Below are positions 1-29,163 of a DNA stretch of 64,000 bases, piece by piece. The notes below the pieces were generated by a model that was not told where the DNA came from, did not search any database, and worked only from the letters and a program-made list of their open reading frames with translations. Positions within the stretch are counted from its first letter, which is position 1. Each line of letters starts with the position of its first letter. Made by a program: the position numbers and the translations under genes. Source of the DNA: Lysobacterales bacterium (GTDB lineage: Bacteria > Pseudomonadota > Gammaproteobacteria > Xanthomonadales > Wenzhouxiangellaceae); contig PBLG01000002.1 in assembly GCA_002722315.1 (NCBI GenBank), forward strand, positions 89,949 through 153,948, in the 5' to 3' direction.

Positions 1-24
1 TCCCTGTTGCGTACCGGGCCGGCC

Positions 25-732
25 TCAGGCCAGCGTATGAAGTTCTCCGGGCGGCAGGTGCGCGACGCAGTTCAGTCGCGATACCGACCAGCGGCCCGAA
101 TCAGTCGGATGACCATCCACCCTCAATTCCGTTATCGACGCATTGTACAACGTCACATTCAACTGACGCTGCCAGGCCAGGTCGTGTCCCAGCAGACTTG
201 CGGCCAGCGTGCTGATGACGCCGGCCGAAGTCACTGCAACCACCGTGCCGGCCTCGTCGAACATCAGCGACATCCGGCGCCCAGCCGCGTCGACGCGCTG
301 GCTGAAGGCGCTCCAGCGCCCGTTCACCGAGCAGTCCAGTCTCTCCGTCTGCCACGCCTCGAGAACGCGCGGAAAAAGCGCCAGGAAGGTTTCCAGGTAA
401 GCGACCGGATCGGCAAGCGCCGCTGGCCCGGGGGCATCCAGCGCCAACTCGTCGGCCCGCAGAAACGCCGCCTCGAGCAGGCCATCGACACGGTATTCGT
501 TCAGGTCGGGGTCCGTTCTGCATGCGCCCAGGGCGCCAAGGTAATCGGCAGTCTGGCGGTGACGCTTCAGTTCGCCCCGGACCATTGCTGCGGTTTCGAT
601 CTCCGCCTCGAGGTGCCGACCGACGTGCTCGGCCTGCCTGAAGCCGATCTTCGAAAGCCGGTCGTAATCATCGGTACCCAGCGAACCCTGGGCGTGGCGC
701 ACGAGCAGCAATCTGCGATTCGATTCAGACAT
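25..732 (-). CDS. Histidine phosphatase (phosphoglycerate mutase-like) family protein
   Basis: N-terminal LLLVRHAQ (RHG-like) motif, LxRHRQTA, LNEY, VTSAGVI and C-terminal LNCVAHL are typical of the family. Confidence 0.85.
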   Translation of the reverse strand: MSESNRRLLLVRHAQGSLGTDDYDRLSKIGFRQAEHVGRHLEAEIETAAMVRGELKRHRQTADYLGALGACRTDPDLNEYRVDGLLEAAFLRADELALDAPGPAALADPVAYLETFLALFPRVLEAWQTERLDCSVNGRWSAFSQRVDAAGRRMSLMFDEAGTVVAVTSAGVISTLAASLLGHDLAWQRQLNVTLYNASITELRVDGHPTDSGRWSVSRLNCVAHLPPGELHTLA

Positions 733-23151: not shown

Positions 23152-24003
23152 TCAGCGCTCGTCGGCCAGCAGCCGACGCTTCCGCTCAAGGCCCCAGCGA
23201 TAGCCGCCCAGCTGGCCGTCGCTTCTCAGTACGCGGTGGCAGGGAATCAGCAGCGCAATCCGGTTGGCGGCGCACGCCCCGGCCACGGCGCGGACCGCCG
23301 TGGGCCGCCCTACCCCGGCCGCGACCTCGCTGTAGCTCGCCGTCACGCCCCGCTCCAGGCCGGACAGGAACCGCCAGGTCCGTATCTGCAGCGCGGTGCC
23401 GAACACGTGCAACGGGATGTCCGGTCCGGGCGCGCCGTTATCGATGGTCGCCTCCAGGGCATCCATCCAGCCGTCCAGTGCCGGGCTTCGCTCGGCCGGC
23501 GAGCGCCGGATATCGGCCCGGCCGAATTCCTCGAAAAGGGCCGATTCGGCCAGGGCCCGCTGGTCGCCGAACTGCGCGTAGCACACACCCCTGGAGGTCG
23601 CAGCCATGGTCAGCCAGCCCAGCCCGGTGCGGCGGCTGGCGAACCTTATCTGCTCGCCCTCGCCGAACCGTCGGTATTTCAGCGGCGTCATGCCAAGAGC
23701 ACTGGGCGAAAGATCGTAAAAACGGCTCAGGGCACCGAAACCGGCCTCGAAAACGGCGCCCGCCACGTCGCGACCGGCCCGGAGTTCCCGCTTGACCCTG
23801 CGCACGCGCGCTGCGCGCTGGTACTGACTGGGCGTGACGCCGAGCGCGGCACGGAAGCGTCGCTGCAGCGCGTAGCGACTCAAACCCACCCGTCGCCCCA
23901 GCTGCTCCAGGGTCATCGGTTCATCCGCGTTCGCCTCTATCCATTCGGCCAACTGCGCCATCTCCCGGTCGGTTGCGCCGGAGTCACTCATCGACGGTTC
24001 CAT
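23152..24003 (-). CDS. ada: Ada-like AraC-HTH plus methylated-DNA--protein-cysteine methyltransferase
   Basis: AraC HTH (LEQLGRRVGLSRYALQRRF), GTALQ, AVRAVAGACAAN, active site IPCHRV; no N-terminal Zn domain visible. Confidence 0.85.
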   Translation of the reverse strand: MEPSMSDSGATDREMAQLAEWIEANADEPMTLEQLGRRVGLSRYALQRRFRAALGVTPSQYQRAARVRRVKRELRAGRDVAGAVFEAGFGALSRFYDLSPSALGMTPLKYRRFGEGEQIRFASRRTGLGWLTMAATSRGVCYAQFGDQRALAESALFEEFGRADIRRSPAERSPALDGWMDALEATIDNGAPGPDIPLHVFGTALQIRTWRFLSGLERGVTASYSEVAAGVGRPTAVRAVAGACAANRIALLIPCHRVLRSDGQLGGYRWGLERKRRLLADER

Positions 24004-24111
24004 CTCGATTCTTGCCTGCACGAAGCTTACGCCAATCAGTCGATCCGTCTTCCCGGAAATTGCGGCGGGCGAGCAACCAGCCGCCATGCGCTGACGGATA
24101 CACTTGCATCC

Positions 24112-24831
24112 GTGGAGATCCAACCGTCGCTGAGTATCGTCATTCCCGTCGGTCCCGGCGAGACCGAGCATCTGCAGCTTCTGCAACGCCTGGCCGAGTT
24201 TCCCGCAATCCGATCCGGGACGACCTGCGAGATCGTCCTCAGCGGCTGCGAATCTCCCCAGTCGCCTGCCGTACCGCCCCAGGAGATCGATTGCACCCGG
24301 ATCACAGGTCCGGCCGGGCGAGCCGCTCAGCTCAACCGCGGCGTTGCCGCCGCCTCGGGACGCTGCCTGTGGCTACTCCACGCCGACAGTCTTCCCGGGC
24401 CCGCCGCCATGGACCGCGCAGCGGCGTTTGCGGCAACCCTGCACGACCCCGACGCGCCCGGTGTGCTGGGCTGGTTTCCGCTGTCGTTTGCACCCGGCGG
24501 CCCGCCGCTTGCGGCGCTGAATGCTTTCGGCGCCAACCTGCGCTCGCGGATCCTGAAGCTTCCGTTCGGCGACCAGGGCTGGCTGTTGCGGCGCGACACG
24601 TTCGAATCGCTCGGGGGCTTCGACGAGCAGTTCGGCCTCGGGGAAGACCTGGATTTCATTCACCGCGCCCGGCGCAGTGGCATCCGGCTCTGCCGCCAGG
24701 ATGCGTTGATCGCGACCTCGGCGCGCAGGTACCGCGAGCGCGGCTGGCTGCGCACGACGCTTGCACACCTGTGGCTTACGCTGCGGCTGTGGAACAAATC
24801 CGGCCGAAAGCTCCGGGAGACGTCGAATTGA
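24112..24831 (+). CDS. GT2 glycosyltransferase, TIGR04283-like
   Basis: LSIVIP, GRAAQLNRG, LLHADS, LPFGDQG, LGGF, EDL, TSARRY; GTG start. Confidence 0.85.
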   Translation: MEIQPSLSIVIPVGPGETEHLQLLQRLAEFPAIRSGTTCEIVLSGCESPQSPAVPPQEIDCTRITGPAGRAAQLNRGVAAASGRCLWLLHADSLPGPAAMDRAAAFAATLHDPDAPGVLGWFPLSFAPGGPPLAALNAFGANLRSRILKLPFGDQGWLLRRDTFESLGGFDEQFGLGEDLDFIHRARRSGIRLCRQDALIATSARRYRERGWLRTTLAHLWLTLRLWNKSGRKLRETSN

Positions 24832-25493
24832 CGCCGGCCATCGCAATTTTCGTCAAGACCCCCGGACTGTCGCCGATCAAGACCCGCCTGGGAAGCAGCG
24901 TCGGCCGGCGAATCGCCGAGGAATGGCATCGCCGCGCCGCCGCGTGTGTCGCCATCAGCGCCTGCGCCACCAACCTGCCAGTCTACTGGGCGGTAGCCGA
25001 GGCCGACGGCATGCAGCACCCGCTTTGGCAGGGACTGCCGCGCATCGGCCAGGGCGAAGGCGGCCTGGGCGCCCGGATGGCCCGTATGCATACCGAAATC
25101 GTGCAGCGGCACGGTGCCGGCATCCTGGTCGGCGCCGACCTGCCGCAGATCGAGACGCGGCATCTCGAGGCGGCAGCAACCTGGCTGGATTCCCCGGATG
25201 CAAGGCACGTGCTGGGCCCGGCCCGGGACGGCGGTTTCTGGCTGTTCGGCGCCAACCGTGCACTGCCCACGTCCACTTGGGAATCGGTAACGTACAGCCG
25301 CGACGACACGGCGCGTCGCTTCATCGACGCGGTGGGTGCATCCAGCTGGGAATTTCTCCAGATCATGACCGATCTCGATCGGGCCAGCGACCTGCAAGCC
25401 GTACTCGATGAGCTCGATTCGCTCCGGAAACCATCGGCCGAGCAGCGGGCGCTGGCGCGATGGATCGAGACCCAGATCGAACCGGACGCGTGA
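24828..25493 (+). CDS. DUF2064/TIGR04282-like (CofC-like) transferase
   Basis: IFVKTPG...KTRL, QGEGGLGARM, VGADLP, VLGPARDGGFWLFG, DLD; TTGA overlap with the upstream stop. Confidence 0.85.
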   Translation: MTPAIAIFVKTPGLSPIKTRLGSSVGRRIAEEWHRRAAACVAISACATNLPVYWAVAEADGMQHPLWQGLPRIGQGEGGLGARMARMHTEIVQRHGAGILVGADLPQIETRHLEAAATWLDSPDARHVLGPARDGGFWLFGANRALPTSTWESVTYSRDDTARRFIDAVGASSWEFLQIMTDLDRASDLQAVLDELDSLRKPSAEQRALARWIETQIEPDA

Positions 25494-25632
25494 ATCCTGC
25501 TGCTCCGCGACAACGCCTCGAGTGGCGGCCGTAGCCGAATCGACGTTTTCAACCGGTCTTTTCTGCATGACCTTGCTGGCATCGAACGCGTAGAATTGCG
25601 GGATTCCATCACACTTTGAAAGGGGCTTGGCA

Positions 25633-28266
25633 ATGCTTCTCAGATTGACTCTTCTGCTCGCACTGGCCCAGTGCCTGCCCACCATGGCCATGGGCCAGGT
25701 CGACGACGAGGGAACGCCTGCAAGTCGGGCCGGCACGCCAACCTTCCATTTCATCGGCGACCGCTACCGCATCGGCATCGGGCTGGACAGCGAGTTCGAC
25801 GTCGTCGGCGAGATCGAGGCATCCCTCTACGAATCGCAGCGCTCCAGCTTCGTCGGCGACGGCTGGCTGGGCCGCGAGGGCGCCGGCGGCGTCAAGCTCA
25901 ACTATCACTGGCTGGTCAACGAAACCGCCGAAGACGGCCCCGACGGCCCGGTCTACACGGACGGCAGCGTCGCCAAGCTTTTCGTCGCCGCCGACCAGAA
26001 CCAGTTCGACGACCGCAAGCTGACCTTCGGCGGCGGCTGGGAAGGCCGCAACTGGGCATTTTCCGGTTATGGCATGTCGGCCCTGTCCGACGAGCGGCTG
26101 GTCGACCGGACGCGCTCCATCGAGGAGATGCTGATTACCGGCGTGATCGACGGCCGCGCCTTTACGCGCGTCGATACGATCGAAACCATCACCGACCTTT
26201 TCGAAGAGCCCTACGACTGGGGCCTGGGCCTGCGCGCCGAGCGCTTCTTCGACAATCCGCTCATTCGCCTGCGCGGCGGACTCGACTACGAGGAGGGCGA
26301 TTTCAGTTCCTCCCAGGTGACCGCTTCTCTGTCGCTGGACAAACGCTTTTACGATTCGCCGCACGGCCTGAGCTTCCGCACCAGCTATGCGCGCAAGGAC
26401 GGCGATTTCGTGACTGACGAGAACGACCTTCGCGGTAGCGTGATCTACAGCTTCAGCTTCGGCGCCGCGGGCAACGCCTTCCGCCAGGGCCGCCAGTACC
26501 GGGAAGTCGAGGTCGAAGTCCCCGGTGAACCCAAGACCGAGGAGCGGGCGGTGGCCAGCAGAGTCACGCTGGCCGATCACACGACTTTCGGTCTGGACAG
26601 CTCCACCCTCAAGCCGGCAGCCGAAAGCACGCTGGACGAACTTTTGGCCGTGATCGAGGACGGCGGCCTGGTCGGCGATATTCAGGTCGTCGGCCACACC
26701 TGCGACCTCGGCACGGAAGCCTATAACCAGGACCTTAGCGAGCGACGAGCCCGCTCGGTGGTCCAGTATCTGACTGCGCAGGGGATCGACGCCGCTCAGA
26801 TCGACTGGCGCGGCGAAGGCGAGACAGAGCCGCGCTTTCCCAATGACGGTGACCAGAATCGCAGCCGAAATCGCCGCGTGGAAATCACTTTCGTCACCGA
26901 GCGAACCAGCATGAAGACGGTGACCGTCGGTTCGGATGAGCCGGCCACCGAAATCCGCCGGGTCCAGATTCCGGTGGAAGCGCCATGGATTCGCCGCGCG
27001 CTTCGCAATCCGGTCCGCCACAAGCGAATCGTCGATTACTACCGCTACCAGCAAAGCACCGCCAACGTGACCGAGGGCGAAATCGAATTCGTCAACGACG
27101 CGCCGCAGGCCGCGGACGACCAGTTCTCGGTCGATGCCGATTCGGCCGACAATACGCTGGATGTTCTGGCCAACGACACCGATGCCGACGGCGACTCACT
27201 GACGATCACCGGCGTCGGCGAACCGGCGAACGGCCAGGCATCGGTCAGCGGTAGCAGCGTGATCTACACGCCTGAACCGGGCTTCACGGGTACCGACAGT
27301 TTCACCTACGCAGTCGAGGACGGCTTCGAAGGCCAGGATACCGCCACCGTGACGGTCACCGTGCAGTCGACCAACGAGCCGCCGATCGTCGGCGATCTGG
27401 ACGCCGAGACGCTTCGCAATCAGCCCGTGGAGATCGATGTGCTGGCCGGTGCCAGCGATCCCGACGGCGACCCGCTGAACATCGCCTCGTTCACCCAGCC
27501 GGGCAACGGCACGGTGACGCAGGCGGGGAATCTGCTGCGCTACCAGCCCGATGAACAGTTCGTCGGCAGCGACAATTTCACCTTCACGGTCGCCGACGGC
27601 CGCGGCGGCGAAGCCAGCGCCAGCGTAACCGTCACGGTGCAGTCGGACAACGGGGCGCCGGTGGTCGGCGACCTGAGCGCCGAGACGCTTCGCAATCAGC
27701 CCGTGGAGATCGATGTACTCGCAGGCGCCAGCGATCCCGACGGCGACGAATTGAGCATCGCCTCGTTCACCCAGCCGGGCAACGGCACGGTGACGCAGAC
27801 CGGCAACGCCTTGCGTTATCAACCCTCCAACGAGTTCGTCGGCAGCGACAGCTTCACATTCACGATCAGTGACGGGCGCGGCGGCGAAGCGACCGGCTCC
27901 GTCGTGGTCGATGTCGAATTCGTGAACCGTTCGCCGGTGGCCAACCCCGACGGCGCCACGACCGCCGCCGGCGAACCCGTGACCGTCGACGTGCTGGCCA
28001 ACGACTTCGATCCCGACGGGGATCCGATCGAAATCGTGGATGTTGTCCAGTGGTACGGCAGGCCTGCACAGGCAACGGTGAACGGCGATGGAACCATCAC
28101 TTTCGAGGTCAGCGGATGGTGCCACGGGCGAAACGACTTCCGGTACACCATTTCGGACCCGTTCGGCGCGACCGCACAGGCCAACGTCACGATCTTTCGG
28201 CCCGGGGAATCGGTGGACGCGGAATCTCCGGACGCGTCCACCGAGTGTGTCGTCGATCCTTCGTAG
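25633..28266 (+). CDS. Outer-membrane adhesin: signal peptide, beta-barrel, OmpA_C domain and four Ig/cadherin-like repeats (probable inverse autotransporter)
   Basis: Signal peptide; amphipathic beta-strands; OmpA_C motifs GHTC, YNQDLSERRA, GEGE, RNRRVEI; repeats NDAPQAADD/DVLANDTDADGD/GTDSFTY. Confidence 0.85.
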   Translation: MLLRLTLLLALAQCLPTMAMGQVDDEGTPASRAGTPTFHFIGDRYRIGIGLDSEFDVVGEIEASLYESQRSSFVGDGWLGREGAGGVKLNYHWLVNETAEDGPDGPVYTDGSVAKLFVAADQNQFDDRKLTFGGGWEGRNWAFSGYGMSALSDERLVDRTRSIEEMLITGVIDGRAFTRVDTIETITDLFEEPYDWGLGLRAERFFDNPLIRLRGGLDYEEGDFSSSQVTASLSLDKRFYDSPHGLSFRTSYARKDGDFVTDENDLRGSVIYSFSFGAAGNAFRQGRQYREVEVEVPGEPKTEERAVASRVTLADHTTFGLDSSTLKPAAESTLDELLAVIEDGGLVGDIQVVGHTCDLGTEAYNQDLSERRARSVVQYLTAQGIDAAQIDWRGEGETEPRFPNDGDQNRSRNRRVEITFVTERTSMKTVTVGSDEPATEIRRVQIPVEAPWIRRALRNPVRHKRIVDYYRYQQSTANVTEGEIEFVNDAPQAADDQFSVDADSADNTLDVLANDTDADGDSLTITGVGEPANGQASVSGSSVIYTPEPGFTGTDSFTYAVEDGFEGQDTATVTVTVQSTNEPPIVGDLDAETLRNQPVEIDVLAGASDPDGDPLNIASFTQPGNGTVTQAGNLLRYQPDEQFVGSDNFTFTVADGRGGEASASVTVTVQSDNGAPVVGDLSAETLRNQPVEIDVLAGASDPDGDELSIASFTQPGNGTVTQTGNALRYQPSNEFVGSDSFTFTISDGRGGEATGSVVVDVEFVNRSPVANPDGATTAAGEPVTVDVLANDFDPDGDPIEIVDVVQWYGRPAQATVNGDGTITFEVSGWCHGRNDFRYTISDPFGATAQANVTIFRPGESVDAESPDASTECVVDPS
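27385..27900 (+). repeat. Near-identical intragenic duplication (276-bp period) of an Ig-like module
   Basis: GCCGAGACGCTTCGCAATCAGCCCGTGGAGATCGATGT occurs at 27403 and 27679; ATCGCCTCGTTCACCCAGCCGGGCAACGGCACGGTGACGCAG occurs twice. Confidence 0.9.
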
Positions 28267-28362: not shown

Positions 28363-29163
28363 ATGAATTTCCTGCTCGAGCACGAGGCGTCCATCCGGCT
28401 GGGAGGCTTCGGCGCCGCGCTGGTCCTGCTGGGCATGCTGCAGTGGCGCTTCGGCCTGCGCGGTGACGGCCGCCCCGCCCGGCGCCAACTGACCAACATC
28501 GCAATGGTGATCATCGATACGCTGGTCCTGCGCCTCGCCTTCCCGGTACTGGCGGTGGCCTTCGCGGCCTCCGTGCATGGGTCGGGCACGGGACTGCTCG
28601 GTGCCGCCGACGCGCCGTTCTGGCTCGAGTTCACGCTTGCGGTGCTGGTCCTTGACCTGGCGATCTACTGGCAGCACCGGCTGTTCCACAAGATCCCGTT
28701 GTTCTGGCGGTTCCACCGCGTGCACCACGCAGACCGGGCTTTCGACCTGACCACGGGGGTTCGCTTCCACCCGGTCGAGATCGCGCTTTCGATGCTGATC
28801 AAGTTCGGCGTCATCTGGCTGATCGGCGCCCACCCGGCCGCAGTCCTGGTGTTCGAAATCGTGCTCAACCTGGGCTCGCTCTGGACGCACACCGACCTTG
28901 CACTGCCGTCAAGAATCGACCGGCGCCTTCGCTGGCTGGTCGTCACGCCGTCGATGCACCGGATTCACCATTCGACCTTGAGGCATGAAACCGATTCCAA
29001 CTACGGCTTCCACCTTTCGCTCTGGGACCGGCTGTTCGCCAGCTATACAGAGAATCCGGAGCGCCCGGAAAAGACCATGCCGATCGGCCTGGACCAGTAT
29101 CGCAGCGACAACGACCAAACCCTCACGGCGCTGTTGCTCAATCCTTTCAAAAGCAAAAGCTGA
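28363..29163 (+). CDS. Sterol desaturase / fatty acid hydroxylase family protein
   Basis: His boxes YWQHRLFH, FHRVHH, RFHP, HRIHH, and SNYG..WDRLF; several TM segments. Confidence 0.9.
   Translation: MNFLLEHEASIRLGGFGAALVLLGMLQWRFGLRGDGRPARRQLTNIAMVIIDTLVLRLAFPVLAVAFAASVHGSGTGLLGAADAPFWLEFTLAVLVLDLAIYWQHRLFHKIPLFWRFHRVHHADRAFDLTTGVRFHPVEIALSMLIKFGVIWLIGAHPAAVLVFEIVLNLGSLWTHTDLALPSRIDRRLRWLVVTPSMHRIHHSTLRHETDSNYGFHLSLWDRLFASYTENPERPEKTMPIGLDQYRSDNDQTLTALLLNPFKSKS

Follow-up and report, generated by a model that had tools for sequence, protein, structure and literature searches.

Domain layout of the gene

Within the window, that is, the whole 64,000-nucleotide stretch analysed, the open reading frame at 25633–28266 translates into a protein of 877 residues, whose signal peptide is followed by a barrel, an OmpA_C domain, a conserved segment and, at the C-terminal end, four Big_9 repeats. 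An AGGGG resembling a ribosome-binding site lies 7 nt upstream of the ATG at 25633, and an alternative TTG start is open at 25627. Judged by inspection, the hydrophobic residues 1–21 have the character of a signal peptide, and in homologues the same hydrophobic stretch closes with A-x-A/G ahead of a Q. The features referred to below, all on the forward strand, are:

25633..25695, +, signal peptide, residues 1–21 (inspection; cleavage likely before Q22)
25738..26463, +, predicted 12-stranded outer-membrane β-barrel, residues 36–277 (AlphaFold2 model, VIA-align, ESM Atlas)
26083..26217, +, long extracellular loop 4 β-hairpin, residues 151–195 (model strands, couplings)
26464..26982, +, predicted periplasmic insert (stalk arm, OmpA_C, stalk arm), residues 278–450 (missing in OmpA-less homologues)
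26479..26565, +, outgoing stalk arm, residues 283–311 (model strands, R290–V444 coupling)
26566..26898, +, OmpA_C (OmpA-like) domain, residues 312–422 (Pfam PF00691, structure match)
26701..26703, +, Cys357 (GHTC) where the canonical diaminopimelate-binding Asp (GHTD) sits (alignment counts)
26899..26982, +, returning stalk arm, residues 423–450 (model strands, weak couplings)
26983..27042, +, plug helix and predicted pore-threading linker, residues 451–470 (conservation, model, couplings)
27037..27093, +, exit strand and connector to the first Ig domain, residues 469–487 (model strand, couplings)
27094..28212, +, four Big_9/cadherin-like Ig repeats, the passenger (Pfam Big_9)

The original prediction read this gene as an inverse autotransporter with an OmpA_C domain spliced between barrel and linker. 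Every motif that it quoted was found in the translation at the positions given, including ENDLRGSVIYSFSFG (residues 263–277, 26419–26463) and APWIRRALRNPVRHKRIVDYYRYQQ (residues 450–474, 26980–27054). Pfam likewise recovered the complete OmpA_C domain that it described, with OmpA at residues 318–414 (PF00691, E = 3.8e-21, 75.7 bits, cut-off 27.2), and the four Ig/cadherin-like repeats, as four Big_9 stretches starting at residue 488 (E = 4.9e-87). With approximate boundaries, repeats 2 and 3 are ~76% identical and repeat 4 is divergent. Relatives carry 1–14 repeats, and no lectin tip was detected in the passenger.

The barrel–OmpA–linker–Ig order is conserved and is no assembly artefact: OmpA follows the barrel in 45 of the 50 loci fetched, and the linker is also present in 44 of these 45, the remaining one stopping at a contig edge. 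The neighbouring genes encode a glycosyltransferase, a DUF2064 protein and a fatty-acid hydroxylase. None of them recurs within the short flanks of the homologue loci, so nothing points to an operon or a partner gene. The sequence shows a single promoter-like site (0.4 expected) and no terminator; neither result is informative. Short, low-depth contigs from three RNA runs (two studies) lie over the gene; DNA carry-over is possible, and two of the three runs also cover its flanks.

The barrel is predicted to be of the intimin/invasin type

AlphaFold2 generated a 559-residue model (model residue 451 is protein residue 472) with an overall pLDDT of 93, a pTM of 0.71 and values of 95–99 in the barrel strands. 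The N-terminal region models as 12 strands, and its alignment columns alternate between polar and hydrophobic. Among 48,161 representative chains compared using VIA-align, independently of Foldseek, the best matches were intimin (5G26/4E1S; Z 18.5, rmsd 3.1–3.2, 210 residues aligned) and invasin (4E1T; Z 18.3), at a structural-alignment identity of only 8–13%. The other listed barrels were EstA (Z 15.1), KdgM (15.1) and NanC (14.7), whose alignments stop at the last strand (model 255–258), whereas the intimin alignment extends beyond the OmpA domain, as far as the end of the linker that threads the intimin pore (model 21/23..451 against 210..449 of the intimin/invasin structures). A model of the OmpA-less homologue L033 (pLDDT 96.6, pTM 0.88) returned the same top three structures (5G26, 4E1S and 4E1T) and the same alignment end point. 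Using ESM Atlas, residues 30–290 gave IAT_beta in 29 of 30 matches (score 0.94), while residues 22–490 returned OmpA families, below 0.9. In a Foldseek search with the 559-residue model, OmpA domains rank first and intimin appears 35th and 50th. In intimin, the lumenal R288 is reported as completely conserved. As a prediction, these results bear out the intimin/invasin-type barrel originally proposed: the modelled fold is 12-stranded and intimin-like rather than an 8-stranded OmpA-type or unrelated barrel.

Profile searches gave a different outcome. The comparison with IAT_beta (PF11924) that had been suggested matched none of 44 barrel sequences, and profile–profile scores were weak: hhalign against an 18-row IAT alignment gave a probability of 6.6% (E = 0.0056) and 0.7% (E = 0.082), neither significant. 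PF11924 also had no match in a search of this genome or in 42 further relatives. Pfam leaves the barrel unrecognised, and Pfam and NCBIfam on the protein offer no route to IAT_beta. By sequence profile, the protein falls below the gathering threshold of PF11924 and is not assignable to it. Searches of PDB sequences using phmmer and a barrel profile yielded an ice-binding protein at a best E of 0.17, which we attribute to chance.

The segment after the OmpA domain is predicted to thread the barrel

The OmpA domain is followed by W-x2-RAL-x-NP-x2-HKR-x-VD-x-Y, in which W452, R455, A456, L457, H463, V467 and Y470 are each at least 90% conserved (Y470 in 97% of 145 rows). In the model, this region (pLDDT 98) forms a helix at residues 451–458 and a coil at residues 459–468, and the exit strand (model 448–459) runs in antiparallel register with loop 4, whose strands lie at model 134–151 and 154–172. 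Model residue 451 superposes on intimin residue 449. Going by spacing, the W452–R455 helix apparently corresponds to the last part of the intimin helical turn near R434, with 15 residues from Arg to Tyr here and 14 in intimin.

Covariation points the same way. Pairs linking residues 451–470 to lumen-like barrel positions make up 6 of the top 100 (0.81 expected); none link this segment to the OmpA domain (1.48 expected). Couplings of the linker include V58–R465, S251–I466, E220–K464, G197–K464, E67–R454 and H92–N459. Residues 469–487 contribute four pairs with loop 4 (0.51 expected), and control segments in the same count gave 1 and 0; couplings between loop 4 and the exit region include E191–R471, R179–G482, R175–F486 and I172–I484. 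When only OmpA-bearing rows were used, linker–lumen pairs fell to 3 in the top 100, and the top 300 contained 8 of them (2.43 expected). The couplings and the AlphaFold2 model were built on one alignment and are not independent; threading was deduced jointly from where the alignments end, the secondary structure and the couplings. The barrel-threading linker of the original proposal thus stands as a prediction, superposing on the intimin linker end and covarying with lumen residues.

The OmpA module behaves as a removable cassette

Of 201 genomes in the source's order, 89 encode the barrel. Among the 150 representatives listed, 98 carry OmpA and the linker, 12 carry the linker without OmpA, and six have OmpA but no linker match. 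Homologues lacking the ~170-residue insert join the barrel straight to the linker: in rows where the motif was found, the distance from barrel end to linker Trp is 153–260 residues in 89 of the 98 OmpA-bearing representatives and 11–50 residues in 10 of the 12 OmpA-less ones. These OmpA-less homologues fix the insertion site and substantiate the proposed splice between barrel and linker. The barrel tree requires at least 7 changes of OmpA state, and the insert therefore behaves as a removable cassette. Family OmpA domains fall on one side of a branch with an SH-aLRT of 87. The GC content of the insert (0.649) is close to that of the barrel (0.64), so recent horizontal gain is not indicated. 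A word-based search with the IAT alignment retrieved 73 long proteins, and a precomputed OmpA domain was present in none of them; from this small and biased sample there is weak evidence that the insert may be confined to the barrel family described here.

Structurally, the OmpA domain matches that of A. baumannii (3TD3/3TD5) with a Z of 17.2. The R290–V444 coupling between the stalk arms ranks 26 of 153,181 pairs. In the outgoing arm, pLDDT drops to 67 around residues 302–311; in the returning arm it is 60–77 at residues 422–441, and couplings to the outgoing arm are weak.

As had been anticipated, databases label this widespread family merely as OmpA or Ig proteins. The literature that we searched contained no description of the arrangement, and we take the architecture to be a new variant of type Ve secretion.

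A cysteine replaces the canonical aspartate of the peptidoglycan pocket

The original prediction treated the OmpA domain as a peptidoglycan anchor and overlooked one substitution: the Asp of the canonical G-H-T-D motif is Cys357 here. Aligned across 113 family domains, Cys occupies this position in 109, and some family members do carry Asp. By comparison, this genome encodes five further OmpA domains, all with Asp, and among 48 OmpA domains outside the family, taken from eight related genomes, 46 have Asp. Elsewhere the pocket is preserved, with R372 kept in 111, N365 in 99, L368 in 108, F319 in 112 and Y364 in 80 of the 113 domains. These residues correspond to the contacts Arg591, Asn584, Ile587, Phe541 and Tyr583 given for PorE in the available text of PMC7192894. 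With Cys in place of the canonical Asp, the anchor claim is less certain than first proposed: judging from the retained pocket residues, the domain likely grips peptidoglycan.

This substitution underlies the best placed of the alternatives, which we regard as unlikely: that the topology is indeed that of type Ve, with the insert turned by Cys into a dimerisation, spacing or partner-binding module. Such near-uniform Cys indicates selection for Cys rather than decay, the available part of PMC12108004 credits the Asp as one of two residues binding diaminopimelate in A. baumannii OmpA, and the module is dispensable in several lineages; set against this are the otherwise intact, PorE-like pocket and the family members that retain Asp. 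An elaboration of the anchor is also doubtful, namely that a length-variable stalk sets the distance between outer membrane and wall while Cys lets the anchor grip covalently or in a redox-switchable manner, or makes it prefer cross-linked stems. If true, the adhesin's wall tether could be switched on and off.

A probable type Ve adhesin with a likely built-in wall anchor

We assign a probability of about 80% to the reading that the protein is an inverse autotransporter (type Ve) whose inserted OmpA domain holds peptidoglycan and whose Ig repeats are displayed outside as an adhesin stalk. The original interpretation is supported in that all three of the outcomes it named as fatal, where accessible to computation, are predicted to fall in its favour. 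From what is established for type Ve systems, Sec would export the protein and BAM would insert the barrel. The predicted topology has strand 12 ending in the periplasm, which would place the insert there. The stalk arms are predicted to pair as a β-ribbon that returns the chain to the barrel mouth, so that the insert would act like an enlarged intimin helical turn. The W452–R455 helix would then plug the pore, residues 459–468 would cross it and residues 469–487 would pair with loop 4 outside, as model and covariation suggest. By analogy with intimin, the Ig repeats may be drawn out from N to C terminus through sequential folding. In the periplasm, the OmpA domain would bind the stem peptide through R372, N365, Y364, L368 and F319, with Cys357 probably altering affinity or specificity.

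It is improbable that export proceeds as in intimin from a barrel that arose independently, by convergence, from another 12-stranded family. Profile comparisons are not significant and 12-stranded barrels reach Z 13–15 among themselves, but the lead over the next barrel is ~3 in the models of both the full protein and L033, the ESM Atlas language-model features choose IAT_beta, the weak hhalign matches lie in the expected register, and strand order, long loop 4, plug helix, Arg-to-Tyr spacing and exit point agree with intimin. Convergence would deny the protein common descent with inverse autotransporters, altering the label and not the mechanism. Less probable still is an OmpA/OprF-like anchor in which a porin-type barrel precedes a wholly periplasmic OmpA_C and Ig tail and the repeats stay unexported: barrels followed by OmpA_C are very widespread, homologues are called 'OmpA family protein' in databases and IAT_beta is not matched, but the post-OmpA segment is the protein's most conserved part, survives OmpA loss, covaries with the lumen and an extracellular loop and superposes on the intimin linker, the six linker-less representatives end early or look frameshifted, and 1–14 repeats would be hard to fit in the periplasm.

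On the type Ve reading, BAM likely copes with a barrel whose last strand leads into a folded domain and, beyond it, an exported chain. According to the available text of PMC13078405, it is unknown how inverse autotransporters initially form their export hairpin; the same text reports that substituting a short flexible stretch for the intimin helical turn (412–430) lowered display only modestly. A gap of ~150–260 residues between last strand and linker, together with natural insert-free controls, offers a way to test which of the two linker capture requires, a short tether or a stalk that is already folded. The Asp-to-Cys pocket lends itself directly to testing OmpA_C ligand chemistry. The analysis also brings to light ~200 sequence clusters, which go unrecognised by Pfam as autotransporters.

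Comparison with known systems

The wall tether of enterobacterial inverse autotransporters is an N-terminal LysM domain. Here, the OmpA anchor would replace it, giving a second route for tying a type Ve adhesin to the wall. With intimin (4E1S/5G26), invasin (4E1T) and YeeJ (PF11924), the protein shares a predicted N-terminal 12-stranded barrel, a predicted periplasmic helical plug and linker through the lumen, an exit strand predicted to pair with loop 4, the conserved Tyr and a C-terminal Ig-like passenger. It differs in carrying a folded domain of ~170 residues between strand 12 and linker, where theirs is a 19-residue turn, and in being missed by PF11924 at 8–13% structural-alignment identity. 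Its passenger is Big_9/cadherin-like, and most members have a long hairpin as loop 4. Unlike in intimin and YeeJ, the barrel begins ~15 residues past the signal peptide, and no LysM match was found in the protein or in 42 further relatives.

Among OmpA_C proteins (PF00691: A. baumannii OmpA, Pal, the C-terminal domain of PorE, and OprF), the fold (Z ~17) and the pocket Arg, Asn, Tyr, Leu and Phe are shared. In contrast to these proteins, the domain has Cys for the canonical Asp, follows a 12-stranded rather than an 8-stranded barrel, and is internal, with both ends extending into a predicted two-stranded stalk. According to the available text of two preprints (bioRxiv 10.64898/2026.01.22.700529 and 10.1101/2020.04.15.042101), Streptobacillus trimeric autotransporters with OmpA domains, and AtaA with its helper TpgA, are likewise type V adhesins tied to peptidoglycan via an OmpA domain, as we infer here. 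Those systems are type Vc, with OmpA at the extreme C terminus or on a separate protein, whereas the OmpA domain described here lies within a monomeric type Ve chain, N-terminal to the part predicted to be exported.

Domain architecture and genomic context

Translation of the open reading frame at 25633–28266 yielded an 877-residue protein carrying all of the motifs quoted in the original prediction, each at the position given there. Pfam placed an OmpA domain at residues 318–414, followed by a run of four Big_9 repeats that starts at residue 488, while no Pfam family matched residues 22–300, with a consistent NCBIfam result. The features of the locus are as follows:

25633–28266, plus strand: signal peptide, barrel, insert (residues 278–450: stalk arm, OmpA_C, stalk arm), conserved linker (residues ~451–470), exit strand (469–487) and Ig repeats
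25915–25965: family-variable turn joining strands 4 and 5 on the periplasmic side (residues 95–111)
27928–28266: divergent last Ig repeat containing Cys830, and tail containing Cys872
23152–25493 and 28363–29163: Ada-like AraC/methyltransferase regulator, glycosyltransferase family 2 and DUF2064 pair, and fatty-acid hydroxylase family gene

These neighbours showed no conservation beside homologues, within the flanks of the homologue loci. As both Cys830 and Cys872 are kept in close homologues, the last repeat and tail suggest a disulfide-capped tip, which may be the binding end. Five further long ORFs in the source genome (contigs C34, C38, C14 (two) and C41; 753–1986 amino acids, stop to stop) carry the same Ig repeat type without the intimin-like barrel.

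An intimin-like barrel fold is predicted from structure but not recovered by sequence profile

A link to IAT_beta (PF11924), the intimin/invasin barrel family, was not borne out by sequence profile. None of 44 barrel sequences scored, placing the protein outside this family by score, and hhalign matched the barrel profile only weakly to an 18-row IAT barrel alignment that itself recovers invasin and intimin. Using language-model features of residues 30–290, IAT_beta clusters made up 29 of 30 matches (score 0.94). An AlphaFold2 model of residues 22–580 from a 145-row alignment (pLDDT 93.1, pTM 0.71) was read as a barrel of twelve strands in the membrane, with loop 4 drawn out into a long hairpin, and two stalk arms flanking the OmpA domain, followed by a helix (451–458), coil (459–468) and strand (469–480). 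VIA-align ranked intimin first (Z 18.5, r.m.s.d. 3.1–3.2, 210 aligned) and invasin close behind (Z 18.3), and intimin was again top in an unbiased search of 48,161 chains. By Foldseek on the same model, OmpA domains led and intimin appeared at ranks 35 and 50. With twelve modelled strands and intimin and invasin as best structural matches, the proposal of an intimin/invasin-type barrel held at the level of prediction, and we regard the family as intimin-like by predicted structure rather than by HMM. The strand 4/5 turn is modelled as an extended β-hairpin in this lineage and as a short helix in L033, an OmpA-less homologue.

The linker is predicted to thread the barrel

The VIA-align match to intimin and invasin covered model residues 21/23–451 and intimin 210–449, whereas the remaining barrels listed in the 48,161-chain search stopped at model residues 255–258. 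In protein numbering, model residue 451 corresponds to residue 472, past the OmpA domain, and intimin 446–449 is described as forming the strand of the linker's extracellular tip (PMC13078405). From these end points we infer that the linker passes through the barrel.

Covariation was assessed from the alignment used for the AlphaFold2 model, and is thus not independent of it. The top 100 of 153,181 ranked pairs included 6 linker-to-lumen pairs (0.81 expected), 1 linker-to-lipid-face pair (0.86 expected) and no linker-to-OmpA-domain pairs (1.48 expected); two control segments gave 1 and 0. Residues 469–487 coupled to loop 4 in 4 pairs (0.51 expected), three sharing one antiparallel register, consistent with the predicted loop-4 sheet. 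With the 129 OmpA-bearing rows alone, the top 100 contained 3 linker–lumen pairs, and the top 300 contained 8, against 2.43 expected. One coupled pair, E67–R454, may echo the contact of intimin R434 with E238 in periplasmic turn 1 (PMC13078405). Together, the end points and couplings favour the prediction that the post-OmpA segment re-enters the barrel, with a plug. Couplings support the predicted stalk pairing more thinly, with R290–V444 at rank 26 and further stalk pairs beyond 280.

Distribution and conservation of the architecture

A search with residues 22–490 found 479 relatives among 7,992 scored candidates. All 120 relatives among the matches listed combined OmpA with Ig families, and wherever a taxon was named it was Wenzhouxiangella, Xanthomonadales or Gammaproteobacteria. 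With the barrel alone as query, matches came from 89 of 201 sampled genomes of the order, spanning 29 of 74 genera. In the class, 3 of 400 sampled genomes matched, with a further genome unscored, and in the phylum 2 of 401 did so; the source genome is counted in each figure.

The 44-row barrel profile retrieved 203 clusters among 1.84 billion representatives. Among the 150 listed, 98 had OmpA followed by the linker motif and 12 had the linker without OmpA. Six had OmpA without a linker match, all of which end early or appear frameshifted, and five had neither; on visual inspection two of these five carry a divergent linker, and the remainder are short or apparently frameshifted. The barrel end was missing from 28, and one stopped just after the barrel. 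The family has one member from Thiotrichaceae, P0221, named 'T1SS secreted agglutinin RTX' at source yet carrying barrel, OmpA and linker; the name is likely a misannotation. Four representatives (P0165, P0178, P0175 and P0216) have 300–590 extra residues N-terminal to the barrel, with TPR matches in P0165 and P0178, and thus the family may also include large N-terminal periplasmic domains.

The OmpA insert is naturally present or absent

In 5 of 50 fetched loci, 20 of which were hand-picked and included the weakest full-length matches, the last strand is followed by ~ten residues, the same helix–linker motif and Ig repeats, with no OmpA. A scan seeded by these five found 22 loci (one truncated, several repeating the seeds; names including Dokdonella, Pseudofulvimonas and Lysobacterales), none with OmpA after the barrel. 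The model of L033 (pLDDT 96.6, pTM 0.88) was again led by invasin and intimin (Z 17.9–18.1), with the match ending at intimin 449. Genome G002 encodes both types (L033 and the OmpA-bearing L050); G054 and G184 have two full-length matches each, and the OmpA-less copy was fetched from both.

A quick, unrooted tree built from the barrel alone (110 rows, of which 96 carry OmpA and 14 lack it; fragments excluded) showed 7 changes between OmpA presence and absence, each of them required by starred branches. In an unrooted OmpA-domain tree with few columns, a branch with SH-aLRT 87 separated the family domains (59 rows, every second representative) from 46 OmpA domains outside the family. A single gain followed by repeated loss would be the simplest reading, taken as provisional because the trees are unrooted. 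Insert length ranged from 153 to 260 residues.

A cysteine replaces the canonical aspartate in the OmpA pocket

In OmpA_C structures, Asp, Asn and Arg bind diaminopimelate (PMC7192894; PMC12108004). The proposed peptidoglycan anchor is likely, though less firmly so than first suggested: R372, N365, Y364, L368 and F319 are retained, but the canonical Asp is Cys357. Across 113 aligned family domains this position is Cys in 109, Asp in 3 and a gap in 1. Among 48 OmpA domains outside the family, drawn from eight related genomes, it is Asp in 46, Ser in 1 and a gap in 1, and the source genome's own five further OmpA domains have Asp. A few members (L020, L028, L035, P0125 and P0148) carry GHTD rather than GHTC and offer natural controls for the role of the Cys. 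For 75 of the 98 members examined, the equivalent of Cys357 is the sole Cys from barrel start to linker, so a conserved partner for it within the chain is not apparent. Judged from sequence, the domain probably binds the wall, likely with altered affinity.

Proposed mechanism and comparison with known systems

The protein is predicted to work like intimin, with a periplasmic insert on a stalk. Estimated from the rise per residue of a β-strand, a stalk arm of ~28 residues could span at most ~9 nm at full extension. By analogy with intimin, BAM would insert the barrel, Ig folding would drive an export hairpin, as in the intimin model (PMC13078405; PMC6555100), and the passenger would mediate adhesion. 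Swapping the intimin helical turn left display largely intact by microscopy, with a modest, significant drop by flow cytometry (PMC13078405); the insertion site is thus a permissive position in intimin.

As originally anticipated, this architecture is apparently undescribed: a full-text literature search, covering few subscription papers and no supplements, found no account of the barrel–OmpA–linker–Ig order, and the word OmpA is absent from an inverse-autotransporter family survey (PMC4943183). These findings define a conserved, real variant of type Ve secretion in which the OmpA-type module is internal and removable, with an unusual pocket. Described inverse autotransporters bind the wall via an N-terminal LysM (PMC5595812; PMC6714894), whereas here an OmpA-type module lies inside the chain. 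In trimeric autotransporters, OmpA domains are reported at the C-terminus or on a helper (bioRxiv 10.64898/2026.01.22.700529; 10.1101/2020.04.15.042101), in contrast to the internal position found here.
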